Below, one piece after another: positions 30,888 through 43,421 of a stretch of 62,095 nt of DNA. The notes beneath the pieces are model-generated. The model was not told the origin of the DNA. It made no database searches and was given only the letters and a program-made list of their open reading frames with translations. The DNA lies in contig CAZPHU010000009.1 in assembly GCA_964586285.1 (NCBI GenBank), forward strand, positions 1 to 62,095, read 5' to 3'. A program made the translations under genes and the position numbers. The stretch is from an uncultured Fibrobacterota bacterium (GTDB lineage: Bacteria; Fibrobacterota; Chitinivibrionia; Chitinivibrionales; CAYFVL01). Within the stretch, counting starts at the first letter, position 1, and each line of letters starts with the position of its first letter.

Positions 30888-32105
30888 ATGAACGTCAAGA
30901 AATCTAATAAACTGAATAATGTCCTCTATGATATCAGGGGGCCGGTACCACGAGAGGCACAACGGTTGGAGGAGGAAGGGTATCAGATTATTAAACTGAA
31001 TATCGGAAATCCAGCCCCGTTTGGTTTTGATGCTCCGGAGGAAATTATTCATGATGTTATAATAAACCTGCCTGCGGCACAGGGTTACTGTGATTCAAAG
31101 GGGGTCTTTCCCGCCAGAAAAGCTGTAATGCAATACTATCAGCAAAAGGGTGTTTTCGGCGTAGATACCGAGCACATTTACATCGGTAACGGAGTAAGCG
31201 AGCTTATTGTCATGGCTATGCAGGCTCTGCTGGATAACGGAATGGAAGTACTTGTCCCGGCGCCCGATTACCCCTTGTGGACCGCGGCAACCAACCTGGC
31301 AGGTGGAAAGCCGGTGCACTACATCTGCGATGAAAAATCCGACTGGTATCCGGATTTGGAAGATATAGAGAAGAAAATTACCCCCGATACAAAGGCCATA
31401 GTTGTCATTAACCCGAACAACCCCACCGGCGCGGTTTATCCAAAAGAAGTCTTGGAAGCAATTGTGGAGATAGCCCACAAGCATAAGCTGATCATATTTG
31501 CCGATGAGATTTACGATAAAATTCTATATGATGATGCTAAGCATACCTCTTTGGCTGCTCTAACGGATGATACACTGTGCATAACTTTTAATGGGCTTTC
31601 AAAATCCTACCGCGCGGCAGGTTTTCGTGCCGGTTGGATGGTCATAAGCGGTAAACGCTCGATTGCGAAGGATTATCTGGAGGGTATAGAGATGCTTGCC
31701 TCCATGCGCTTGTGCAGCAATGTCCCTTCCCAGTTTGCTATTCAAACCGCACTTGGCGGATATCAGAGTATAAACGATCTGGTTCTTCCGGGAGGGCGTC
31801 TGATTGCGCAGCGGGACTATGCCTACAACAGGCTGATAAGCATTCCCGGGGTTTCCTGCGTGAAGCCTAAAGGGGCACTTTATATGTTTCCCAGAATCGA
31901 TATAAAAAAGTTCGGCATCACGGACGATCGCCGGATGGTTTTGGATCTGCTTCTCAGGGAGCGTGTACTTCTGGTTCAGGGAACCGGATTCAATTGGGCT
32001 GAACCCGACCATTTCCGTCTGGTATTCCTGCCCCGCGAAGATACACTGAAAACAGCCCTGGACAGATTTGAAAGATTTCTGGAAAACTACAACCAAAACG
32101 GCTGA
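30888..32105 (+). CDS. alaA: Glutamate-pyruvate aminotransferase AlaA-like (class I/II PLP)
   Basis: YDIRGPV, LNIGNPAPFGF, PDYPLWTAA, INPNNPTG, FNGLSKSYRAAGFRAGW. Confidence 0.9.
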   Translation: MNVKKSNKLNNVLYDIRGPVPREAQRLEEEGYQIIKLNIGNPAPFGFDAPEEIIHDVIINLPAAQGYCDSKGVFPARKAVMQYYQQKGVFGVDTEHIYIGNGVSELIVMAMQALLDNGMEVLVPAPDYPLWTAATNLAGGKPVHYICDEKSDWYPDLEDIEKKITPDTKAIVVINPNNPTGAVYPKEVLEAIVEIAHKHKLIIFADEIYDKILYDDAKHTSLAALTDDTLCITFNGLSKSYRAAGFRAGWMVISGKRSIAKDYLEGIEMLASMRLCSNVPSQFAIQTALGGYQSINDLVLPGGRLIAQRDYAYNRLISIPGVSCVKPKGALYMFPRIDIKKFGITDDRRMVLDLLLRERVLLVQGTGFNWAEPDHFRLVFLPREDTLKTALDRFERFLENYNQNG

Positions 32106-32220
32106 TACGATCATTATCGAAGGGACGCAAGGCCGGTTGCGTCTCTTCAACATAAATCCGGTGAGACCACCAAAAAAATGGCTCGAATAGATTCCCCAGG
32201 TTAAACCTCTTCTAAAAAAA

Positions 32221-33672
32221 TCAGGCGTTCTGCAGGATAATTTTCGATGCGGTGTACGCATTGACCATTACATTCCAAATACCGCCACCGGGTTTTCCCC
32301 AGTGCCCAACCTGATATAGATTCGATAAATGGGTAGTTATGGGCATTTTTGCTTCGCCGTAGATATCTCTGGTATTTTCAAAACCGTAGAGCGACCCGTT
32401 AGTGTTTCCGGTGTAGCGCTCAAAAGTCTGAGGTGATCCTGTCTCGAAGAGTACAATCTTATCGGCCAGACCTGGAACTATACTGTCTGCTTTTTGAATC
32501 ATCTTTTCGGCAATTTCATGTTTGGTATCTTTCCAATTGTCGGAAAAAGATTCCTCAACAAAATGCATCATTGTAAGAACGGGATAACTTGGATCATCAA
32601 CAGTGCGCAATAAAATCAGATGATCCATTGCAATACTTTTGTTCTCTTGGATTCGCCGGAAAATTCGACCATGATCTTTTGATTCAAACCAAAATGAGAT
32701 ATTATCATCAAGAATCTGAGTAAAGCTTTCTTCCATTCCACAGTAGACCGCTACACATGATACCGACGGCTTGAGATTGGACAGCCTTCTTACCCATCGT
32801 CTGCTTCGAGCTTTCTCTTCCAATATTCTGGTTTGCAGACTATAGGGGCTGATATTTGAAACAACCAACGGGGCATCGAAATCCTGCCCGTTGCTTGTAA
32901 TGACTTTGGTGACCTTTTTAGACGATTCGCTTAATATAGAACACACCTCTGTTTTCCTGTATACTTTTCCACCATTCGCGGAGATTATACCGGCCAGAGA
33001 ATCGGCAAGTGTGTGAAATCCCCCTCGTAGAAAATGAGAACCTTCGAAATAGTGGATCGTAAACATCATGGTGTAAAACAGCGCCGCACCATAATCGGGC
33101 GAAGCACCGGCATACGGCCATAATGAATACAGCACATGTTTCACATCCGAATCGGTCAAATGCCCATCAAGAAAATGCTTAAACGATTTGTTATGAAACT
33201 GTGACACAAACGACAAATCTTCCGGCGTGAAATTATGTTCGTAATCACGGATCGGATCTATGAGTATGCGTCTGAATTTTTGCATTGTATCGAAAAAACT
33301 GTCCAGTTCTTTGCGATGTTTTGGAAAACGCTCGTGAAGTTTATCCGTTATTGCTTCCTGATGCGAGGGCATCGTAAACGAACTATTCGGAGTAACCGTC
33401 CGATACATCGCAGGTTGATCAATGGGGGTTATGCTCTTATCTATGTCAAGAAGCCTTAAAAGGTGCATCAAGGTTCCGTGTTCACTTAACGGTACAGAGT
33501 GAATGCCGCTTTCAAAATGATACTTTTTTCGGCTGAAGCCGTGTGCATAGCCGCCTATTCTATAATGCTTCTCCAGCACGGCTACACGCATGCCCGCTCT
33601 TGCCAGAAAAGCTCCGCATGTCAGTCCGCCAATACCGGATCCGACAACAATTACATCATATGATGATGTCAA
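32221..33672 (-). CDS. CrtI/RetSat-like FAD-dependent oxidoreductase
   Basis: VVGSGIGGL...VLEKH..IGGY dinucleotide fold; SPQTFERYTGNTNGSLYG; LYQVGHW..PGGG. Confidence 0.85.
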   Translation of the reverse strand: MTSSYDVIVVGSGIGGLTCGAFLARAGMRVAVLEKHYRIGGYAHGFSRKKYHFESGIHSVPLSEHGTLMHLLRLLDIDKSITPIDQPAMYRTVTPNSSFTMPSHQEAITDKLHERFPKHRKELDSFFDTMQKFRRILIDPIRDYEHNFTPEDLSFVSQFHNKSFKHFLDGHLTDSDVKHVLYSLWPYAGASPDYGAALFYTMMFTIHYFEGSHFLRGGFHTLADSLAGIISANGGKVYRKTEVCSILSESSKKVTKVITSNGQDFDAPLVVSNISPYSLQTRILEEKARSRRWVRRLSNLKPSVSCVAVYCGMEESFTQILDDNISFWFESKDHGRIFRRIQENKSIAMDHLILLRTVDDPSYPVLTMMHFVEESFSDNWKDTKHEIAEKMIQKADSIVPGLADKIVLFETGSPQTFERYTGNTNGSLYGFENTRDIYGEAKMPITTHLSNLYQVGHWGKPGGGIWNVMVNAYTASKIILQNA

Positions 33673-33694
33673 AAAGTCCCCACAATATATTTAT

Positions 33695-35191
33695 TTAAGA
33701 AATGCTAAATTGCTTGTGATCGTCCCGGCAAATAATCTGCGTGACATGTTTACCCAATGCGGTCACTCTGGGGAGACCCCCTGGAGTTGCAATCCACTGC
33801 CCGGTCATATAGAAATTTTTCAGTTTCGGCAATGTCTTTGGGATGTTCAGACCAATATTCTTCGGTGTAGGCGCCCATCCCTGATAACTAGCCTTCCAGT
33901 TTTGAGTATAACGAACGTATGTCGCAGGTGTTGCGGTATCAATAGTCTCTATGTTCTTACGAGTTCCGGGGAAACGCTTCTCAAGACCGTCTATGACAGC
34001 TTCGGCAACTCGCTGCTTTTGCTGTTTGTACTCCTCATAATTATTTTCCCGCAATCTTGTCCAATAGGAATAATCGTGGGTGCGAAGATGGACAATTAAG
34101 GCAGTCTTGCCTTCAGGAGCAAAACAGGTATCGAAGTTGCAAATACGAATGAGCATTGAATCGATCTTTTCCGATCCCATTGGTATGCTTTCCGTAAGCG
34201 GCAAGACCAGCTTCGAGGGCGCATCGGAGTAGTCCATGTTCACACCCAACGAAATCTGTAAGAGAGAGGGAAAGACCGGAAATGTATCATACTGTTTTTT
34301 CAGTCGCTTATTTAAGTATTTCCCGTCAAGCATGTTAAAAAGCGCTTCGTGCCCGTCGGAGGCACAAACTACAATATCGGCCTTGTAAACGCTGCCGTCG
34401 GAGCACCTTACCCCAGTTGCTCTATTATTTTCAACCTCTATCCGGGTAACTCTTTTATGCAGACTGATTGTACCGCCAAGCTCCTTATACTTTCTCTGGA
34501 TGATATCTCGGAAATTAGCGGAGCCTCCGCGGGGATATCCGGCCGCACGTGCATGCATCCATGCCAATGCCATCATTACACTAAGAACCGAAAAGAAATC
34601 ATGGTGCGGAAAAATCAATCGCAACATCATTCCCAAGCGTTTGTTGCTGTATCGCGAGGCATACTCTTCTATGGTCTCCTTACGCCATTTGGCGTAAAAC
34701 CTGATTATCTTCAGATTCTTAAGCACAAACCTTACTGCTGTGTACGGATTTAGCAGCTCGGGTACCGTATCGAATGGAATGTCCATTCTGCTCAAATCAT
34801 CGATGGCTTCCGTGAATTCACGGGCCAACGATTCATCTTCAGGGGACAGACGAACCATCTCACGATATAATTCATGAGCATCCGTGTACACATGGAATGT
34901 CTCTCCCTCATAATCGATCTGCATGAATTCTTCAAAATCGATTATTTCAAGCTCATTGAAATCAATAAGTTCCTTGAGCACCTTATGCACAGTGGAACGA
35001 TCGGATGAACCGGGAAGCCAGTTAGTAGCCCCGTCAAAGATGTATTTCCCACGTTTCCACGAAACCGATACGCCGCCGCACTCTCGTCCCATTTCCAGAA
35101 CGTGGCTGTGGTATCCATTCATCTGCAGATAGCAGCCCGTTGCCAGGCCGCCGATTCCGCCTCCAATAATTATTACTTTTTCTCTTTTCAT
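33695..35191 (-). CDS. Second CrtI/phytoene-desaturase-like FAD-dependent oxidoreductase
   Basis: IIGGGIGGLATG, WKRGKYIFDG, ATPATYVRYTQNWKASYQGW, FYMTGQW..PGGLP. Confidence 0.85.
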   Translation of the reverse strand: MKREKVIIIGGGIGGLATGCYLQMNGYHSHVLEMGRECGGVSVSWKRGKYIFDGATNWLPGSSDRSTVHKVLKELIDFNELEIIDFEEFMQIDYEGETFHVYTDAHELYREMVRLSPEDESLAREFTEAIDDLSRMDIPFDTVPELLNPYTAVRFVLKNLKIIRFYAKWRKETIEEYASRYSNKRLGMMLRLIFPHHDFFSVLSVMMALAWMHARAAGYPRGGSANFRDIIQRKYKELGGTISLHKRVTRIEVENNRATGVRCSDGSVYKADIVVCASDGHEALFNMLDGKYLNKRLKKQYDTFPVFPSLLQISLGVNMDYSDAPSKLVLPLTESIPMGSEKIDSMLIRICNFDTCFAPEGKTALIVHLRTHDYSYWTRLRENNYEEYKQQKQRVAEAVIDGLEKRFPGTRKNIETIDTATPATYVRYTQNWKASYQGWAPTPKNIGLNIPKTLPKLKNFYMTGQWIATPGGLPRVTALGKHVTQIICRDDHKQFSIS

Positions 35192-35243
35192 GATAATGAA
35201 CTGTTCTGAACCGTTTTACACTGTTACCTGTTTAACCCTGTAA

Positions 35244-36131
35244 TCAGCTGTCACTTTCTTGCACAAAGGGTATATCTTCATGAAGAAAGTACCATTGCTC
35301 AGGGTGTTTTGATATTGTTGATTGAAGATTATCGTAGATAAGCTGCAAAATATTTGTCTTGTTTAGTGGAATTTCTTTTAGTGATAAGCTGTATAGATCA
35401 TTATTTTCCCGGAGCATTGTCGCGGCCGCGATTTCCATTGGTGCACGGCAGAACATCACTAGACGATCTATTCCGGCCCCGCCCCAAACCTTGGTACCGA
35501 AAAGCTCAACAGGCTTACTGTATGGTGTTTTTTCGTCGATTACGGTAACAAGGATTTCTTTTCTTCTCAGAGCCGCCGCCATATCGAGCGCGGCGTTTGT
35601 TTGAGGTTTGCCAATCTCAATAAACCGTATAGGGGCGAACAAACCACTTTCGTTCATCTTCTTGGCCCGGGCATGTGCCTCCTGGGAAAACCTTTCGGTA
35701 GTAAATCGCAAAACTACATTCACCGTATGCCCCATACGGGACAGTGTGGGTACGATGAATTCTATTGCTCCAAAATGACCGGTTACAATCAGGATTCCTT
35801 TGTTCTGTATGTCCGCCTGGTATAAAAAGGATATATCCCGGGTCTGTATGCGTCTGTTAAGAAAATCGGAAAAGAATTCGGGGCCTCCGCATAAGGGCAG
35901 CAACTTCTCATAATAGTGTAGCAGAAGATGTTTTTTAACCGCCTCTACTTGTTCCATTTCGCAAGGAAGCGAAAACTGGGCAAGATTCTCTCTGATATGA
36001 GCGCTTATTTCAGGATTTTCGGAGTACCACCAATTGCCTCTTTCGAAGATAAGATCGCGAAGCTGAGGTGGTGTGAGGTTAGGAATCTCAGACAATATCT
36101 GAGGGTCTTGTAAGTAGCGGCTTAAACTCAT
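35244..36131 (-). CDS. LpxL/HtrB-family (lysophospholipid/lipid A) acyltransferase
   Basis: ILIVTGHFGAIEF (HX4E catalytic motif), VIDE, VELFG, HPEQWYFLH. Confidence 0.75.
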   Translation of the reverse strand: MSLSRYLQDPQILSEIPNLTPPQLRDLIFERGNWWYSENPEISAHIRENLAQFSLPCEMEQVEAVKKHLLLHYYEKLLPLCGGPEFFSDFLNRRIQTRDISFLYQADIQNKGILIVTGHFGAIEFIVPTLSRMGHTVNVVLRFTTERFSQEAHARAKKMNESGLFAPIRFIEIGKPQTNAALDMAAALRRKEILVTVIDEKTPYSKPVELFGTKVWGGAGIDRLVMFCRAPMEIAAATMLRENNDLYSLSLKEIPLNKTNILQLIYDNLQSTISKHPEQWYFLHEDIPFVQESDS

Positions 36132-36159
36132 AGTTCTTTCAAAATATTCGGATAAACAT

Positions 36160-36191
36160 AAAGGCAGGAGAAAACAAGCTCCTGCCTTTTT
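36160..36191 (-). terminator. Hairpin downstream of acp
   Basis: aaaggcaggag-N8-ctcctgccttt, a perfect 11-bp stem. Confidence 0.6.
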
Positions 36192-36218
36192 AACTTATAG
36201 GCAAAAAGAATGCATTTG

Positions 36219-36473
36219 TTATTGATTCAAATACTTCTCGACTGTTTCGGTGCATTTATTGATCGAAATCAGATTGGGGAATTCAGATTCTGGAATGGAA
36301 ACACCGAACTTCTTTTCCATAGTGGCCAAAACTTCCAGCAACGCCATGGAATCGAGACCGACGTCATCGATAAAATGAGCATTATCGGTAATGTTTTCTT
36401 CTTCAACATCCATATCTCCTGCTATCTCAATGATAAGTTCACGGATGTCATTCTTAATTTCGGCACTATCCAT
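36219..36473 (-). CDS. Acyl carrier protein
   Basis: DVGLDSMALLE phosphopantetheine site, acidic sequence; start ATG 36473 after GAGGAG. Confidence 0.92.
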   Translation of the reverse strand: MDSAEIKNDIRELIIEIAGDMDVEEENITDNAHFIDDVGLDSMALLEVLATMEKKFGVSIPESEFPNLISINKCTETVEKYLNQ

Positions 36474-36537
36474 AACAAAAATCTCCTCGCTATGCAATCA
36501 CTTATTAGAATGCAACACTCATTTGACTGGGCATTAA

Positions 36538-37740
36538 TCACATAATGTTTTTAAAAATAATTGAGGCGCAATTACCATCGCACGAAAAAGAATTTATCAG
36601 TACGTATTCGGCGGCAAATTGCGGCATGTTTTCAAACTGAATGTTGGCCTCTCCCACTGTTTCATAGGAAGGCCCAACCCCGCTTATACGATTTTCAAAG
36701 CAATCAGCCAATGCACAGATCATAGATAAAGGGGCCCCGGCACCGTAGCATTCACCTACTTTTGCTTTGTATGCTGTAACAGGAGTATTTCCAAACAGCT
36801 TGGCGATTGCCGAAGACTCGATTGTATCGGCTGTCTTATTTCCGTTGGCACTTGCCGCTATAAATGATATCGCATCACAGGAAATGCCGGCCATATCACA
36901 TGCATTTTTCATGACATACTTTTGAACGTTTTCAGAAGGGGCAAACCCCGTAAGTGGTGCATCAGAATCAAAAGCGGAGTAGTACCCGACTATTTCCGCA
37001 ATCGGTTTTGCACCACGAGCGGACGCCTTCTCCAGTGTTTCTATCATAAAAACTCCGCTACCCTCACCCATCACCAGCCCGTCCGCATTACGACCGAAGG
37101 GCAAAATAGTGCCTTTGTGGGAAAGAATACCGGCCCGCTGCATCCCAAGCAGTTCAAAATATGATACTTCTTCTACGCCGCCAACCAGAATGGAATCCAG
37201 ATAACCGCGTCTGATGTAATCGCTGCCGTAGATAACAGCATCGATTCCCGAGTTAAATCCGGTGGAAACGGTAGTGCTTAACGTTCGTACACCGTAACGA
37301 ATGTTGGCGTTGCCGGTCGGCGAGTTGACAACGGTGTTTGCAAATGCCTGCGGATTGACACTGTTTACCCCGTTAACAATTGAATCACTGAGAAAATCAC
37401 CAATGCTCTGAACGCTGCCGAATGAAGTTCCTATACATATGCCGGGCTTGGTGTCATCATCGGCATTTTCAAAGAGATCCTTAAAAGGAGTCTCAATTGA
37501 ACCAAGAATTAATTTGGTCGCCCAATCTTTTGTACGCAGCCCCTTCTTCCCTAAAACTTCAACAGGATCGAAGTGAGTTGCTCTAAAACAGGGGAGCCCT
37601 TGATCAAAAGAATGGTATTCCGAATCCTGATATGAAGCCGGTGCACTTGGTTGCGACAGAGCATCCCTATGCTGCTCGAGCCCAACGCCTAAAGAACTTA
37701 CCGCACCGACACCGGTTATTACTAAGCGTGAATTATTCAT
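36538..37740 (-). CDS. Catalytically inactive ketosynthase (chain-length-factor-like)
   Basis: Full KS fold (ITGVG, PQAFANTV, MGEGSG) but the triad is replaced: STGFNSG for TACAAG, SANGN for HGTGT, VGEC for LGHT. Confidence 0.85.
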   Translation of the reverse strand: MNNSRLVITGVGAVSSLGVGLEQHRDALSQPSAPASYQDSEYHSFDQGLPCFRATHFDPVEVLGKKGLRTKDWATKLILGSIETPFKDLFENADDDTKPGICIGTSFGSVQSIGDFLSDSIVNGVNSVNPQAFANTVVNSPTGNANIRYGVRTLSTTVSTGFNSGIDAVIYGSDYIRRGYLDSILVGGVEEVSYFELLGMQRAGILSHKGTILPFGRNADGLVMGEGSGVFMIETLEKASARGAKPIAEIVGYYSAFDSDAPLTGFAPSENVQKYVMKNACDMAGISCDAISFIAASANGNKTADTIESSAIAKLFGNTPVTAYKAKVGECYGAGAPLSMICALADCFENRISGVGPSYETVGEANIQFENMPQFAAEYVLINSFSCDGNCASIIFKNIM

Positions 37741-37743
37741 GAA

Positions 37744-38970
37744 TTATCCTTTATATCTTCCGATCACGAGAGATGATGTATTGCCGGCAAATGCATAAGC
37801 ATTGGATACCGCTATATCTAATTTAGCTTCACGAGCCTTATTAGGTACATAATCCAGGTCGCAATCGGGATCGGGATCCTGATAATTGATCGTAGGAAGT
37901 AATGTGTTCCTGTTTATCATCAGTGCACACGCGCACGCCTCAATTGCCGATGCCGCACCCATGGTATGACCCAGCATGGACTTAAGAGAACTCATCGGGA
38001 TCTTATAGGCTCGTTCTCCAAATACTTTCTTTGAAATCAAAGTCTCCGATTTATCGTTCTCTTTGGTTCCTGTACCGTGGGCGCAAATGTAATCGATTTG
38101 ATCGGGGCTCACGCCTGAATGCTTGAGGGCTCGATTCAGTGCAAGGATACCACCACTACCCTGTGGATCGGGGATCGTCATTTTAAAGGCATCACATCCC
38201 AGTCCGTACCCAAGCACTTCAGCGTAAACAGGTGCTTTTCGTGCAAGTGCATGACTAAGTGTTTCCAGTATTAGTATACCGGCACCTTCGCTGACGGCCA
38301 TACCTTTTCGATTCAGATCAAACGGCCGCACAATATCGCCGGTTGTGGCAAGCAGACGATTGAAACCCGTAAACGCAATAGAGGAGAATGGGTCGGTACC
38401 ACCTACGACCGCAATGTCGATACGGTTGAGCTGCATAAGATCGTATGCGTATCCGATAGCGTAGTTGCCTGCTGCGCAGGCTGTAGGTATTATGAAATTT
38501 GGTCCCTTGGCACCAAAAGCCTTGGCCACATGAGCAGGAATAACTCCACAGGGATATTGGCGAGGTAAATTCGAAGGAATCGCCTCGGCTGAGTTATTAT
38601 CGTATTTAGCGTGAATCCCTTTTTCAAGTATTTGCGGCTCACCCATTGTAGTGCCGATACTTACTCCAAACCGGTAGGCGTTAACCGCCTTGAGATTAAG
38701 TTTCGCATCGGTGACAGCCATAGCGGCAGCTGCTACCGCAAACTGGCTTGAGCGGCCCATATTCTCTATCTGTTCTTGTGTCAGATACTCCTGTGGATCA
38801 AAGTCTTTTACTTCACCGCCGGTTTTGGTTCGGTACTCGGTCGTATCAATCGAAGTAAGCGGAGCAACACCGTTTTTTCCATTGACGGCAGCTTCCCAAA
38901 ATGTTTCGATTCCGGTGCCAATGGGTGTGACCAGTCCCAGTCCCGTGATTACGACTCTATTACTATTCAT
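37744..38970 (-). CDS. fabF: Beta-ketoacyl-ACP synthase II-like ketosynthase (active)
   Basis: PTACAAG, AHGTGT, KSMLGHTMGA, SNAYAFAG. Confidence 0.9.
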   Translation of the reverse strand: MNSNRVVITGLGLVTPIGTGIETFWEAAVNGKNGVAPLTSIDTTEYRTKTGGEVKDFDPQEYLTQEQIENMGRSSQFAVAAAAMAVTDAKLNLKAVNAYRFGVSIGTTMGEPQILEKGIHAKYDNNSAEAIPSNLPRQYPCGVIPAHVAKAFGAKGPNFIIPTACAAGNYAIGYAYDLMQLNRIDIAVVGGTDPFSSIAFTGFNRLLATTGDIVRPFDLNRKGMAVSEGAGILILETLSHALARKAPVYAEVLGYGLGCDAFKMTIPDPQGSGGILALNRALKHSGVSPDQIDYICAHGTGTKENDKSETLISKKVFGERAYKIPMSSLKSMLGHTMGAASAIEACACALMINRNTLLPTINYQDPDPDCDLDYVPNKAREAKLDIAVSNAYAFAGNTSSLVIGRYKG

Positions 38971-39131
38971 TCACCTGCTTCCAGTTGAAAAATTACGAAA
39001 AAAGGTTTCGTTAAAATGAAAAACATATCAAATGTTGTTCCGAATACTGTAAATCCTGAAAAAACAAGCTAGCAATATACAATCATTCTCTGCTTGTCCG
39101 CAAAAACAACCCAATACTTTTCATGAAAAAG

Positions 39132-39575
39132 TTATACAACTCCGGTTTGGGAAGCCGCAAACATAAGCGAACCGCCTGCAACCGTTTCGCCGTCGACAAA
39201 TGATTTGGCAGAAACAATCGCGTTTTTCCCGACTATCTTTTCCACGATGATTTTCGTTATCAGCTGATCCCCCGGTGTAACCGGCTTACGAAAGGAGATC
39301 TTCGAAATCTTTCCCAAATAATACACCGTATTTTCCTTTAATCCACCGCCGGATTTGGCCAGCAGAAAACAGGACGCCTGTGCCATATTTTCGACAATAT
39401 AGACTCCGGGAAAAACCGGATGCCCCGGAAAATGCCCCTGAAACTGCGCCTCATTAACCGTAATATTCTTTAGAACCGTGACCGACTCATTAGGTGTAAA
39501 TTGGGTTACTCGGTCGATGAGAAGGAAAGGATAACGGTGCGGAACATTACGCATGATCTCTTCTATATCAAACAT
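39132..39575 (-). CDS. fabZ: 3-hydroxyacyl-ACP dehydratase
   Basis: PHRYPFLLIDRV, FQGHFPGHPVFPGVYIVENMAQ. Confidence 0.93.
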   Translation of the reverse strand: MFDIEEIMRNVPHRYPFLLIDRVTQFTPNESVTVLKNITVNEAQFQGHFPGHPVFPGVYIVENMAQASCFLLAKSGGGLKENTVYYLGKISKISFRKPVTPGDQLITKIIVEKIVGKNAIVSAKSFVDGETVAGGSLMFAASQTGVV

Positions 39576-39590
39576 GTAAACCCTTTCAGA

Positions 39591-40325
39591 TCAGGCGGTC
39601 ATCCCGCCGTCTATTGTAAATACCTGACCGGTGATGTATCCTGCTTTTTCGGAGAGTAGAAACGTCACCAACTCTGCTACCTCATCCGCCTTGCCCAGAC
39701 GTTGCATGGGTATCATCTTTTTCATCTCTTCCAAATGCTTTGCATTTATCTTATCGGTCATATCCGTTTCTATGAACCCTGGAGCTACGCAGTTGACCGG
39801 AATGCCCAGCTTAGCGGTCTCTTTTGCCAGGGCACGAGTAAAGCCGATGATGCCTGCCTTGGAGGCACAGTAATTTGTCTGTCCGGCAAGCCCAATCAAA
39901 CCGCTTACAGAGGTTACATTGACAATACTTCCCTTTTTATTCTTCATCAGCTGTACAATCAAGGCGCGAGTGACATTGAAATAACCGTTGAGGTTCGTAT
40001 TCAGTACACTGTCCCAATCCTCACGGCTCATCAGAAAAAGCATCTTATCACGCGTGATTCCCGCGTTATTCACAAGCCCGTCCACATCCTGAAGAAAATC
40101 CTTGCACCGATCAACGAAATCCGAGGCCTGCTTAGGATCGGATAAGTCCGCTTCAAATGCCATGAGTTTTTCTCCAGTCGGATCAAGAGACTGAATCATC
40201 TCCTCGGCAAGAGCCTTATTCGAACGATAATTGAATGCGACTTTACATCCCTGGTTCACCAGCTTGGTCACAATTGCTTTCCCTATTCCGCGTGATCCGC
40301 CGGTAACGATAACATTTTTGGCCAT
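39591..40325 (-). CDS. fabG: 3-oxoacyl-ACP reductase
   Basis: [32 protein letters not shown]. Confidence 0.92.
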
Positions 40326-40368
40326 GATTAATGGTCCTTCCGCAAATATTTCAATTTAACTGCTGCTG

Positions 40369-40788
40369 TCAATTGTCGTTTTCAGGTGCGAGCTTGGTTT
40401 CTTGTTTAGGGCTTATACCCTCACACCGACTCATTTTCAGCCAATGGTGCGGGTGGTTGACCGAATCACCATTCAGGGTGAAATAAAGAATGCGGGCGCG
40501 AATCAGCGAGTCGCTGCGCCATTTGTAGTGATAACCCATTTCCATGGTTAGATCTTCACTTTCAATGGATGCTACCAAAACGGTATCCTTAACCGAGTAT
40601 GTACCGTTGCCTGATACGCTTTCGTCCCTCAAACTGGCGATCGATAGTGAATCCTCATTCTGAAACGTTATTACTAATCCCTCATCACTTACGCACCATG
40701 TACCTTCAAACTTCTGTTGGGATGAAAGTGGCAACACCACTGATAAAACGACTGCCGCGATGCCCGCTGAAAATGAACTTAGCTTCAT
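40369..40788 (-). CDS. Small exported hypothetical protein, lipocalin-like beta fold
   Basis: ATG 40788 after AAGGAG; signal peptide, then FEGTW (GxW) and alternating beta-strand pattern. Confidence 0.6.
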   Translation of the reverse strand: MKLSSFSAGIAAVVLSVVLPLSSQQKFEGTWCVSDEGLVITFQNEDSLSIASLRDESVSGNGTYSVKDTVLVASIESEDLTMEMGYHYKWRSDSLIRARILYFTLNGDSVNHPHHWLKMSRCEGISPKQETKLAPENDN

Positions 40789-40801
40789 AATTCTCTCCTT
40801 T

Positions 40802-43087
40802 TTAACTACTTTTCTCTGTATGTCTGCTCCCGAACATTCGGAACAAAATGGGTAAAAACAGCAATGAAAATGTTGAACTTGTGACCATCGATACAAAAAC
40901 AAACAATCCGAAATGGCGTATCGGCGGGAAACTGGAAAACGCCAGAACGAGAAAACCGATCCCTACAACAAAAGTGTTGAACATTATGACCGCCCCTTTT
41001 GTCTTGGAGGTTGTCATAAGAGCTTCAAAAGCATTGACGTGAGAATCACGTACATACATATATCCCGCCACAAAATGGATCGCATAATCGATACCGATAC
41101 CGATGCAGGTATTAACAATTATTACGGTAACCGCATTAATGGCGACACCAAAAAATCCCATAAGGGAATATACGAAAAGAGTCGAAAGCAGAATCGGTAT
41201 GATTGCAAAAGCTCCCGTTCGTACCGATTTAAACAGAAGGCATAAAACCACAAACACCGAAATGAAGGCAATTAGTAATGAGGAAACCTGTGTATCTATG
41301 AGCACATAGGTCATCGCATCGTTCAGGACCGGAGGCCCGGCGACAAGAACCTCGAATGAAGGGTATTTTTCAGAAAGTGTTTCTTTTAAAGACTTTGAAA
41401 GTTCGAGGAATCGGGTACCGGTGACATTTTTGCAGATGAGCATGATTCTGGTTGTCGTTCTGTCTTCTGTAATCCAGTGGCTTATATAATTGTTGAAACG
41501 TTTTCCCAGAAGCCCCTTGCCTCCAAGAATCATCGAAACCGCAGCATCGGAGATCGGCTTATCAGTCAGCATCATGCTTACTTTTCTTATGAGGGGGAGC
41601 ATGGATGTTGTGGCACCTACCATATCGAGGCTTTTTGCGTAGTTTGATATTTCTTCGACCGTTCGCCATTGATCTGCTGAAGTTAGCGTCGTGTCCCTGT
41701 TTTGGAGCACAACTGTCAAAAATCTGGTTCCTCCGAGGTGATCGCTGATAATCTCGTCGGATCTGCGTATCTGATTTTTAGCAGAAAACATGGCAATCGG
41801 ATTGCCTTCAACGCGGACACGTATGTAACCTATTGTCCCTACGGCGATTATAACTCCCACAGCAATAAGCCACGCATAATCGTTGCGAACAAACGATCCG
41901 TAGTGATTCCAGAAATCAGAGCCGTTTTTCCCATGTGCTTTGGGAGGAATCGGGGATTCGGTACGCTTGTGGCGGGTGTAGGAAAGGGCAATGGGCAGCA
42001 GGATTATACTCAAAAGAAGGGCCAGGACGACCCCAATACTGGTAAATATACCGAAATTTCTGGTCCAGGGTACATCGGAGAATGCAAAAGAAAAGAAACC
42101 GACGAAAGTCGTTATCGCAGACAGGAAAATAGGCTTCATCAGCTCCGAAAAGGTTTTGACGATTATGTCCGTACCGCTGATATTACCCGACTCTGTGCTG
42201 TAGCGTCCGTATGTTTTAAATACATGAATCGCGCTTGCGACACCGATAGGAAACAAAATCACCGGTATCATGGAGGTGACCACCGAAAATTCGAATCCGA
42301 AAATCGACATAAGACCAAAAGTCCATATTATGGCGGTAAAAATTATAAGAAGGGATATGAGGGCATAATACAATCTTTTGAAAACCAGGTATAAAAGAAT
42401 GAAAACAACGACAATACACAAGGGGAGCAACACGGAGAAGTCCCGACGCATCGCGGTGTCGATTGAATAGGCGTACAGGGGAGCACCGGTAATATACAGG
42501 CTTGAGCCTTCAAGAGAATCCAACCGGGCGTGAACGCGAGTGACCTGGGAGACAATGTCAACCTGATTTTTATCCTCCGGCACATCCATCATCATACCCA
42601 GAACAGATTCGTCCTGAGATATCAGTGCGTTAGTGAATTCGACATTTTCTTTTATTCGCTCCCGGATCTGCTCCTCTGTAAGCTCTTTCTTGCGCGAAAC
42701 GATATAATCGCTGCTTAAGCCAAACAGTCCCCCGGAGACTGGAACCTGTATTGTTCCCAGATGAACAATGTTATCAATGCCGTCTATAGCCGCAAATTCT
42801 TGTCCCCAGCTTTGCATCGAATCGATTTTGGCTTTAAGGCTCAAAGTGTCGAATTTGGCGATAAGAAGAATAGAGCGCGGGGAAGAGAAGGTTTTCTGAA
42901 GGTTTTCGTAATCTATTTTTTCCGGGAGATCCGCCGGAATCGTTTTGGTCGGATCGTTGTTTACTTCCAGACGAGGAAGAAACCATATCATAAACACGGT
43001 AATTACCGCGGTTATGCCAATTACTACGGTTCGGAAACGAATAAGTGTATGAACAATTGAACTGGTTAAGTTGGATTTCATGAGCAT
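40802..43087 (-). CDS. MMPL/RND-family lipid exporter
   Basis: Two (1 TM + large loop + 5 TM) repeats; ITGAP, GIGIDYAIHF, FPPIRHFG. Confidence 0.88.
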   Translation of the reverse strand: MLMKSNLTSSIVHTLIRFRTVVIGITAVITVFMIWFLPRLEVNNDPTKTIPADLPEKIDYENLQKTFSSPRSILLIAKFDTLSLKAKIDSMQSWGQEFAAIDGIDNIVHLGTIQVPVSGGLFGLSSDYIVSRKKELTEEQIRERIKENVEFTNALISQDESVLGMMMDVPEDKNQVDIVSQVTRVHARLDSLEGSSLYITGAPLYAYSIDTAMRRDFSVLLPLCIVVVFILLYLVFKRLYYALISLLIIFTAIIWTFGLMSIFGFEFSVVTSMIPVILFPIGVASAIHVFKTYGRYSTESGNISGTDIIVKTFSELMKPIFLSAITTFVGFFSFAFSDVPWTRNFGIFTSIGVVLALLLSIILLPIALSYTRHKRTESPIPPKAHGKNGSDFWNHYGSFVRNDYAWLIAVGVIIAVGTIGYIRVRVEGNPIAMFSAKNQIRRSDEIISDHLGGTRFLTVVLQNRDTTLTSADQWRTVEEISNYAKSLDMVGATTSMLPLIRKVSMMLTDKPISDAAVSMILGGKGLLGKRFNNYISHWITEDRTTTRIMLICKNVTGTRFLELSKSLKETLSEKYPSFEVLVAGPPVLNDAMTYVLIDTQVSSLLIAFISVFVVLCLLFKSVRTGAFAIIPILLSTLFVYSLMGFFGVAINAVTVIIVNTCIGIGIDYAIHFVAGYMYVRDSHVNAFEALMTTSKTKGAVIMFNTFVVGIGFLVLAFSSFPPIRHFGLFVFVSMVTSSTFSLLFLPILFRMFGSRHTEKSS

Positions 43088-43421
43088 TTTATCGGGAGAA
43101 TTTCAGACTCCGGGAAAAAAGGTTGAATCATACAGTTATCTGAGGATAAAATATCCGCGGGGTCGCGTCGATGGGCAATCGCACGTCTAAATATACAAAA
43201 GCCGATGACTAAAATCATAACGTATATATATCTTTTATGGTGCAAAACGGATTTTATCAAAATATACTCAACAGTGTTTTGAAATTTTGGGGGTAAGGAG
43301 TGTATTTTTAATTTTAAATTTTTCTTCACCCTCTGTACCCCTATCTGTTATTTAAACGAAAATAATCAGGTAGACAATTGTGAAACGCCGATAATAGACG
43401 GCATTTCAGTAAGTTCTTCTT

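Follow-up and report, generated by a model that had tools for sequence, protein, structure and literature searches.

A Ten-Gene Operon Related to Anammox Cluster I, with Acyltransferase and Exporter Genes, in a Chitinivibrionales Bacterium

We describe here a ten-gene operon in a 62,095-nucleotide (nt) stretch of DNA, hereafter the window, from an uncultured bacterium of the phylum Fibrobacterota, order Chitinivibrionales (GenBank assembly GCA_964586285.1, contig CAZPHU010000009.1). The operon, at positions 32221-43087, encodes a type II fatty acid synthase (FAS)-like enzyme set whose ketosynthase (KS) pair, dehydratase, acyl carrier protein (ACP) and one flavoprotein have apparent counterparts in Cluster I of bacteria that oxidize ammonium anaerobically (anammox bacteria). 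We think it rather probable that the operon is a Cluster I-family assembly line, extended by a FabG reductase, an acyltransferase and an exporter, that would make a tailored acyl chain, place it on an envelope lipid and export the product. Four observations underlie this reading, namely the gene content of the operon, its orthology to Cluster I, the co-conservation of its genes among relatives, and the presence of a separate primary FAS in the same genome.

RESULTS

The operon and its genes

The operon lies on contig C9 of a 4.06-Mb genome (199 contigs, 94% complete). An open reading frame (ORF) listing, together with Pfam and NCBIfam scans, places ten tightly packed genes in 32221-43087, all on the minus strand, and agrees with the gene list given by an earlier reading of the letters without database searches (the sequence-only reading). 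The intergenic gaps are 3-161 nt, with KS1 and KS2 separated by just 3 nt. From the first gene to the last, the features are:

40802..43087, minus strand: MMPL/HAE3-type RND lipid transporter, 761 amino acids (aa), first gene of the operon (Pfam/NCBIfam)
40369..40788, minus strand: secreted small beta-barrel protein, lipocalin-like, 139 aa from the Met at 40788 (predicted model)
39591..40325, minus strand: FabG paralogue, 3-oxoacyl-ACP reductase (TIGR01830)
39132..39575, minus strand: FabZ paralogue, 3-hydroxyacyl-ACP dehydratase (TIGR01750)
37744..38970, minus strand: KS1, active ketosynthase of the amxFabF2 clade (intact Cys/His/Lys/His)
36538..37740, minus strand: KS2, triad-less ketosynthase, chain-length-factor (CLF)-like (Phe/Ser/Lys/Glu)
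36219..36497, minus strand: dedicated ACP (PP-binding)
36160..36189, minus strand: 11-bp stem-loop between the ACP and acyltransferase genes (terminator-like scan, consensus match)
35244..36131, minus strand: LpxL/LPLAT-family acyltransferase (Lip_A_acyltrans, HX4E)
33695..35191, minus strand: Crt1, CrtI-superfamily flavoprotein (Amino_oxidase and NAD_binding_8 domains)
32221..33672, minus strand: Crt2, CrtI-family flavoprotein of the kuste3607 type (reciprocal best hit)

The ketosynthase pair groups with that of anammox bacteria

The sequence-only reading had proposed one active KS and one triad-less, CLF-like KS, and an alignment with 37 relatives bears this out: KS1 retains Cys-His-Lys-His, whereas KS2 has Phe-Ser-Lys-Glu in their place. 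Most of the 37 proteins aligned with KS2 carry some variant of this "F-x-K-E" pattern. When all PDB sequences were ranked, the top match of KS1 was 9s5h_B (E 6.9e-144, 406 aligned positions), followed by FabF (1e-104, 354 bits) and the polyene polyketide synthase (PKS) ketosynthase 6kxd_A (2e-96, 326 bits). The top match of KS2 was the partner chain 9s5h_C (E 1.3e-47), with FabFs following at about 1e-31. Given that the Cluster I KS and mutated KS (KSmut) of Brocadia score 873 bits (E 2e-262) and 860 bits (E 2e-258) against 9s5h_B and 9s5h_C, respectively, we take 9s5h, by sequence, to be the heterodimer of Brocadia amxFabF2 and amxFabFmut, or a pair nearly identical to it; the code 9S5H itself appeared in none of the papers that we found. 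KS1 is 53% identical to the Brocadia Cluster I KS. The amx pair is reported to form a KS/CLF-like heterodimer, to decarboxylate malonyl-ACP and so prime synthesis, and, in crosslinking assays, to prefer C6-C8 over C16 acyl chains (bioRxiv 10.64898/2026.05.19.726425).

We placed 82 KS-family proteins, drawn from 45 loci, in a maximum-likelihood tree rooted on the genome's own FabF; eight candidate rows of aberrant length were left out, and the rows include no rhizobial FabFXL and no aryl polyene reference sequences. The dead-partner (CLF) clade had a support of 100 and the active-KS clade of 91 (SH-aLRT, an approximate likelihood-ratio test), figures that come from a quick search with this support measure only, in which two long branches, that of the CLFs and that of the outgroup, meet. 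This tree and the PDB ranking both place KS1 in the amxFabF2 clade and KS2 in the amxFabFmut clade. The CLF and KS clades hold the same four lineages, that is anammox bacteria (with Brocadia, Kuenenia and Loosdrechtia rows in each clade), Chitinivibrionales, Acidobacteriota and Omnitrophota/Nitrospirota. Since the lineages coincide in both clades, we regard the predicted KS/CLF heterodimer as an old, vertically coherent pair that Chitinivibrionales have in common with anammox bacteria. Within the CLF clade, a subclade (97) joins Acidobacteriota CLFs with Chitinivibrionales KS2, and 15 actinomycete KS/CLF rows form the sister group of the KS clade (support 93).

A tblastn search of a plasmid collection with KS2 gave only distant KS matches (<30%). 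Separately, P0136, P0141, P0142 and other proteins of ~780-870 aa are matched twice by KS2, best in their second half, and are apparently KS-CLF fusions.

Best-hit counterparts of all six Cluster I genes in one genome

The Brocadia locus has the order ACP-FabZ-KS-KSmut-PDH-B12 radical SAM, PDH being the phytoene dehydrogenase-like flavoprotein and SAM S-adenosylmethionine; the published list kuste3603-3608 matches this order (PMC4790861). The order FabZ-KS-CLF...PDH is common to the window, Brocadia and Kuenenia. As the sequence-only reading had it, the two CrtI-like flavoproteins of the window are different proteins, with only 20-21% identity to each other, and they relate differently to Cluster I. 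Searched against the genome, the Brocadia PDH scores 171 bits with Crt2, 120 with a paralogue on C68 and 100 with Crt1, and Crt2 in turn matches nothing in Brocadia or Kuenenia but the Cluster I PDH. The two proteins are therefore reciprocal best hits, at 26-27% identity. Crt1 scores 111.7 bits on the crtI_fam model, below its cut-off of 238, and has only weak matches in Brocadia and Kuenenia (88 and 81 bits), which fall on the counterpart of Crt2; its homologues at 40-59% identity come from many taxa and make up a broad family. Because kuste3607 was reported to be inactive as a phytoene desaturase in vivo (PMC4790861), a carotenoid role for Crt2 is unlikely.

No B12-binding radical SAM domain was found in the window cluster by Pfam. 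The genome does hold such a gene, rsB on C61, which is its best match to the Brocadia radical SAM enzyme (158 bits, the next 67); in the reverse search, the Cluster I enzyme is the best match of rsB in Brocadia and the second in Kuenenia (146 versus 153 bits). The identities of these radical SAM proteins to the anammox enzyme are 26-31%. The sequence-only reading's statement that there is no radical SAM gene thus holds for the window, but not for the genome, nor for the loci of 23 of 36 relatives, which have radical SAM genes in the cluster. In the PDB rankings FabZ and ACP are not specifically amx-like (see Discussion), yet they outscore the housekeeping copies against the Cluster I proteins: the Brocadia Cluster I FabZ has the operon FabZ as its best match in the genome (115 bits, versus 87 for an LpxC-FabZ fusion on C32), and the Brocadia Cluster I ACP scores 43.9 bits with the operon ACP versus 26.6 with the housekeeping AcpP. 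All six Cluster I genes would then have best-hit counterparts in this one genome, with reciprocity seen for Crt2 and rsB, and FabZ and ACP scored in one direction.

The rsB gene itself (C61:3538-4902, locus L050) heads a MarR-OEP-HlyD efflux operon. In a congener (G045), rsB is followed by OEP-HlyD-AcrB, and the rsB proteins of the two genomes are 86% identical. Four of five further genomes have an rsB orthologue, the exception being a 2.6-Mb genome with the KS1-KS2-ACP trio only. We also noted open frames of 1255-1321 aa on G045:C47, G049:C232 and G067:C12 that contain an rsB-like part (41-43% identity) and look like fusion proteins.

A primary fatty acid synthase is encoded elsewhere

A whole-genome family search found fabH and fabD, both over their cut-offs, on C182, where a fabG, truncated at the end of the contig, comes after them; acpP, likewise over its cut-off, immediately ahead of fabF on C168; and the LpxC-FabZ fusion, over its cut-off, on C32. 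Family scans found no fabD, fabH or housekeeping acpP on the operon's contig, and Pfam and NCBIfam found no enoyl reductase family among the ten operon genes, as the sequence-only reading had described for fabD, fabH and the enoyl reductases. With the primary fab genes on other contigs, the operon is therefore a second, specialised FAS-like set and not the primary FAS. As for the housekeeping enoyl reductase, FabI was absent in the nine short-chain dehydrogenase/reductase paralogues scanned, FabV was not searched for, and the sole candidate found was a FabK-like gene on C111 that scores below its cut-off (227 versus 453 bits).

Some features of the housekeeping genes are unusual. The FabF at C168:3620-4975 is matched by the fabF model in two pieces (1-113 and 123-407) with an insertion of ~40-50 residues between them, and scores below the equivalog cut-off. 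The genome also has another FabH at C26:17254-18201, over the cut-off, and another FabD-like gene at C33:33087-33926, below it (217 bits), neither of them in the two fab loci.

Reductase, dehydratase, carrier, transferase and export genes

FabG and FabZ are over the cut-offs of TIGR01830 (313.7 bits) and TIGR01750 (159.8 bits), respectively. The ACP has a PP-binding domain (8.3e-11) with a DSM serine motif, and is below the cut-offs of the AcpP models. The acyltransferase is recognised by Pfam Lip_A_acyltrans (33.6 bits, cut-off 22.3) and carries the HX4E motif as GHFGAIE; it had no PDB sequence match at E<=0.01, and PRK06553, a lipid A lauroyl acyltransferase model, was its sole NCBIfam match, at 22.6 bits versus a cut-off of 273. 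A word-limited search of 5.8 billion proteins returned 240 homologues, and those with names among the best 120 of the 240 were labelled Chitinivibrionales or Fibrobacter, plus one metagenome-assembled genome (MAG) labelled Treponema. The acyltransferase family looks lineage-restricted, judging from this search.

The first gene of the operon has Pfam MMPL (1.9e-40) and sterol-sensing domains, and matches the HAE3 model TIGR00921 (245 bits) and an HpnN-like model (125 bits), both below their cut-offs. The small protein at 40369-40788 has no Pfam or NCBIfam match. Its longest ORF starts at 40902, but its true start is likely to be 40788, after which a predicted signal peptide follows. The sequence-only reading's description of it as a lipocalin-like exported protein fits what we found, namely a signal-like N-terminal stretch, 16 invariant columns across nine orthologues, and an AlphaFold (AF2) model of an 8-stranded barrel (pLDDT 78.6). 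A Foldseek search with this model gave no match at E<=0.001; the best matches, Bacteroides lipocalin-family proteins, were weak (E 4.8e-3, TM about 0.5). In the ESM Atlas there were only sub-0.9 matches, including one lipocalin cluster at 0.86, which we treat as a lead only.

The stem-loop at 36189-36160 is the sole strong one in the operon, and is possibly an attenuator or a processing site; it may set the ACP:enzyme ratio or divide the operon into two transcripts. An 83-aa ORF upstream of MMPL (43078-43329, minus strand) has no match in family scans and only partial conservation in a congener, at 58% over 43% of the ORF; we regard it as probably no gene, or else a leader. At the other end, a 220-aa ORF at 31599-32261 was treated as spurious because it has no family and lies antisense to an aminotransferase gene.

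Crt1 and the radical SAM gene rsA alternate among related loci

We compared 37 loci, consisting of the window's and those of 36 relatives. Many are cut by contig ends, and the counts below are therefore lower bounds (loci with the gene, of 37):

KS1-KS2-ACP: 37
fabG: 27
fabZ: 25
Crt2: 24
lipocalin-like gene: 20
radical SAM gene rsA: 20
acyltransferase: 19
MMPL: 16
radical SAM gene rsB: 11
Crt1: 7
metallo-beta-lactamase-fold gene: 6

The core is thus co-conserved throughout, nine of the ten window genes (all but Crt1) occur together in 7/37 loci, and all ten in 4/37. Wherever MMPL is present, the lipocalin-like gene adjoins it. A five-locus clade has neither of these two genes in the cluster, and its rsA-type member L046 has OEP-HlyD-ABC genes upstream; every locus with complete context has an exporter close by, be it MMPL with the lipocalin-like protein or, in this one clade, OEP-HlyD-ABC.

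The genes rsA and Crt1 were never found together (0/37 loci). They also occupy different positions, rsA between the lipocalin-like gene and fabG, and Crt1 between the acyltransferase gene and Crt2. The window locus is the variant with Crt1 and without rsA. A KS1+KS2 tree of the 37 loci, whose backbone is poorly resolved and whose relatives are not independent of each other, shows at least two switches between Crt1 and rsA. Three Crt1-type loci have rsB immediately after Crt2, and in G071 rsB stands, at a contig end, next to the same aminotransferase gene as comes after Crt2 in the window. Based on these two layouts, the ancestral order was probably Crt2-rsB-aminotransferase. In six loci (L042, L045, L179, L184, L185 and L193), a metallo-beta-lactamase-fold gene that is absent from the window directly follows the ACP gene; its product is possibly a thioesterase-like release enzyme.

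Distribution of the KS pair

Orthologues of KS2 were sought in 201 genomes. Of 80 other genomes of the order, 55 have one, at 38-77% identity; the 78 genomes searched from the phylum's family f10 yielded none, and another two Fibrobacterota genomes had only 27-28% matches. A HMMER scan of 1.84 billion representative sequences with KS2 gave 907 matches at E<=1e-30, of which only a handful of 50%-identity clusters were close. The nearest relatives outside the order are 33-37% identical, and those with names are Spirochaetales and Deltaproteobacteria MAGs. Likewise, the few names among 20 distant CLF-like proteins are those of Spirochaetales, Deltaproteobacteria and Poribacteria MAGs.

For KS1, we scanned GTDB species genomes with the back-translated 13-residue active-site motif PTACAAGNYAIGY. 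At least 119 stretches were found, and the 80 listed, a sample with groups assigned by record title, comprise:

actinomycetes: 36
Acidobacteriota: 10
anammox-named: 9
Fibrobacterota/Chitinivibrionales: 8
Omnitrophota: 6
other Planctomycetota: 3
no name: 3
Nitrospirota: 2
Desantisbacteria, Thermodesulfobacteriota and BMS3Abin15: 1 each

Six actinomycete KS/CLF loci (L060, L071, L083, L086, L117 and L129) have a Crt2-like flavoprotein nearby (22-25% identity), and the association of KS/CLF with a flavoprotein may extend to polyene-type type II PKSs. At the Acidobacteriota locus L176 (G202:C20), the neighbours of KS/CLF are genes for an RPE65-family carotenoid oxygenase, an HMG-CoA reductase and a Crt2-like flavoprotein, a neighbourhood unlike both the anammox and the Chitinivibrionales ones.

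DISCUSSION

Proposed function

The general logic put forward in the sequence-only reading, of a dedicated KS/dead-KS/ACP set followed by redox tailoring, acyl transfer and export, fits the evidence. By homology to the solved Brocadia pair, KS1 and KS2 would act as a heterodimer, and by the same analogy synthesis would be primed from malonyl-ACP and yield a short-to-medium chain. This chain would be elongated on the dedicated ACP, with FabG reducing and FabZ dehydrating it, and because the operon has no enoyl reductase, the intermediates would stay unsaturated unless a housekeeping reductase or a CrtI-type flavoprotein acts on them. Tailoring would fall to Crt2, to the unlinked B12-radical SAM enzyme rsB and, as a lineage-specific addition here, to Crt1. 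The LPLAT-type acyltransferase would then pass the acyl group from ACP to an acceptor, presumably a membrane lipid, and the association of their genes suggests that the MMPL pump and the periplasmic lipocalin-like barrel would carry the product towards the outer membrane.

Several results weigh against this reading. KS2 is only about 32% identical to the Brocadia FabFmut, and by raw score FabFmut matches KS1 better than KS2. In the PDB rankings, the E. coli-type FabZ 6n3p stands above 7qv0/8ayb, entries named "Beta-hydroxyacyl-ACP dehydratase" that we take to be amxFabZ, and generic ACPs stand above 7auf and 9s5i_E, which we take to be the amx ACP entries. The acyltransferase has no match in the two anammox and two Acidobacteriota genomes searched, nor do the MMPL and lipocalin-like genes have counterparts at the anammox and Acidobacteriota loci examined. 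Six of the 37 loci hold KS1-KS2-ACP only, so that the trio is able to exist without the rest nearby. Lipid analyses of two cultured relatives are reported to have found ordinary fatty acids only (PMC4814513). Finally, the family, its anammox members included, has no member with a known product, and for this reason we infer every chemical step of the scheme, from the heterodimer and the chain length to unsaturation, acceptor and export.

A bolder version, which we offer tentatively and think unlikely as a whole, is that Chitinivibrionales use the Cluster I core for an unseen envelope lipid tailored by radical or flavin chemistry, be it cyclised, branched or polyunsaturated, and that Crt1 and rsA are interchangeable in one step of its synthesis. 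The interchange is suggested by the fact that the two genes are never found together and have been swapped at least twice on the KS tree.

Alternative explanations

The best of the alternatives to the Cluster I-family assembly line, although we give it a small chance, is remodelling of lipid A as by the rhizobial very-long-chain fatty acid (VLCFA) locus, in which an unusual (very long or functionalised) chain would be added as a secondary acyl group. Like that locus, the operon combines an ACP and a FabZ with two FabF homologues and a transferase of the LpxL family; a lipid A pathway is evident from the LpxC-FabZ fusion on C32, and the one NCBIfam match of the transferase is to a lipid A model. 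However, this match is far below its cut-off, the transferase has no PDB sequence match, and Pfam finds no alcohol dehydrogenase family of the AdhA2XL type among the ten genes. An MMPL pump and a periplasmic carrier would be superfluous for lipid A, which moves by MsbA/Lpt. Moreover, the KS/CLF pair groups with those of anammox bacteria, Acidobacteriota and Omnitrophota, whose clusters have no LpxL gene, and the solved homologue is reported to prefer C6-C8 over C16 in crosslinking assays.

It is very improbable, in our view, that the cluster and the unlinked B12-radical SAM enzyme make ladderanes or ladderane-like cyclised lipids, as has been proposed for anammox bacteria. The best-hit counterparts of the six Cluster I genes and the in-cluster radical SAM genes of 23/36 relatives would agree with such a product. 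Against it, ladderanes are described as known only from anammox Planctomycetota (PMC9902471), the radical SAM proteins are only 26-31% identical to the anammox enzyme, the cultured relatives had ordinary fatty acids (PMC4814513), and the sources that we consulted describe direct evidence as lacking, even for anammox bacteria, that Cluster I makes ladderanes.

There is a similarly slight chance that the operon is a reduced aryl polyene or flexirubin-type pigment cluster. Such clusters are common in the Fibrobacterota-Chlorobiota-Bacteroidota group, and their KS and CLF, ACP, FabG, FabZ, LPLAT-type transferase and MMPL exporter are all present here. FabG reaches 282.8 bits on the flexirubin FlxB model, but this is below the cut-off of 340 and less than its score on the FabG model TIGR01830. 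Across the ten genes and ten flanking ORFs, Pfam found nothing that would supply an aryl starter, be it an adenylating enzyme, an ammonia lyase or chorismate-derived starter genes, and also no second dehydratase, thioesterase, glycosyltransferase, methyltransferase or LolA-like protein, and in the PDB ranking of KS1, where amxFabF2 is followed by FabFs, no listed chain is named an aryl polyene enzyme. Nothing that we tested lent support to either the aryl polyene or the rhizobial VLCFA reading.

A redundant or conditional copy of the primary FAS with no special product is hardly credible: FabG and FabZ pass equivalog cut-offs and KS1 passes the subfamily model NF005589 (398.8 bits, cut-off 387), but KS1 is below the fabF equivalog cut-off (415 versus 493.75 bits), KS2 has no catalytic triad, and the operon has two flavoproteins, a transferase and an exporter and no fabD, fabH or enoyl reductase, with the complete primary set elsewhere.

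Significance

Ladderane biosynthesis is a long-standing open problem, and the Cluster I-family assembly line that we favor for this operon bears on it, since Cluster I-type enzymes also occur outside ladderane producers and therefore probably catalyse acyl tailoring of a more general nature. Natural variants that differ by one tailoring gene, with Crt1 in place of rsA, are ready comparisons of the enzymes' roles, and, for an order known solely for degrading chitin, the cluster predicts an envelope lipid that has so far escaped notice. If the bolder version, with an unseen lipid and interchangeable Crt1 and rsA, were true, cultured relatives and a small expressible operon would offer a route to Cluster I chemistry, and Cluster I would be shown not to be specific to ladderane producers.

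Comparison with known systems

The rhizobial VLCFA locus has the gene order acpXL-fabZXL-fabF2XL-fabF1XL-adhA2XL-lpxXL. The window shares with it the association of an ACP, a FabZ, two FabF homologues and an LpxL-type transferase, but has an exporter and flavoproteins, no adhA2XL-type gene, and a transferase that reaches no lipid A acyltransferase cut-off. The logic of aryl polyene (Ape) clusters yields an envelope-anchored polyene. With these and the flexirubin clusters, the window has in common the KS/CLF pair, ACP, ketoreductase (KR), dehydratase (DH), LPLAT-type transferase and MMPL exporter logic; it differs in having no aryl starter machinery, thioesterase, glycosyltransferase or LolA-like protein, and in a KS pair that is related to that of anammox bacteria.

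The Iga11/Iga12 pair of ishigamide synthesis (PDB 6kxd) is likewise a KS/CLF heterodimer that works with KR and DH and without an enoyl reductase. The actinomycete KS/CLF loci, which we presume to encode Iga-type synthases, form a sister clade of KS1 and not the same clade, and KS1 is nearer to FabF (354 bits) than to Iga11 (326 bits, 6kxd_A). Iga-type synthases yield polyenes in free or amide-linked form, rather than lipids that have an exporter of their own.

Clusters of the window's kind have been seen before. Rattray et al. (2009; PMC2649909) reported similar FAS/radical SAM/PDH clusters in the Deltaproteobacteria Desulfotalea, Geobacter and Pelobacter, and Geller-McGrath et al. (2023; PMC9902471) found clusters that antiSMASH labels "ladderane" in Fibrobacterota and in eight more groups, Desulfobacterota and Omnitrophota among them. 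In one marine study, transcripts show that such non-anammox clusters are expressed, with a function given as unknown (PMC9902471). These are the same kind of FAS-like cluster as the window's, and an antiSMASH "ladderane" label is to be expected for the window locus. The sequence-only reading had called the system undescribed, which goes too far: it belongs to a known, uncharacterised kind of cluster. We found no match to an already characterised cluster with a known product, and no Chitinivibrionia papers on these cluster genes in the literature searched.

The closest likeness is to anammox Cluster I (kuste3603-3608 and its Brocadia homologues). Both the active and the dead KS share their clades with the anammox proteins, Crt2 and the Cluster I PDH find each other as best hits, the operon likewise has an ACP of its own and a FabZ paralogue, the order FabZ-KS-CLF...PDH is kept, and a B12-radical SAM counterpart exists in the genome and, in relatives, within the cluster. 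The layout is for this reason not the free-standing "hybrid" of the sequence-only reading, given that KS, CLF and one flavoprotein have Cluster I counterparts. There are differences. The window cluster has no radical SAM gene, and its ACP gene follows CLF, whereas the anammox one precedes FabZ. At the CLF cysteine position, KS2 of the window has Phe, compared with the Val or Thr reported for anammox bacteria. Beyond the anammox gene set, the window cluster encodes FabG, an acyltransferase of the LpxL family, another CrtI-type flavoprotein, and the MMPL and lipocalin-like proteins, and the host is a member of a fermentative Fibrobacterota lineage rather than an anammox bacterium. The Chitinivibrionales architecture, the link to a transferase and an exporter, and the Crt1/rsA alternation are not described in the accounts that PMC2649909 and PMC9902471 give of their loci. 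What is new here is thus the gene-by-gene best-hit correspondence to Cluster I, the transferase/exporter extension, the alternation of Crt1 with rsA, and the relocated rsB.

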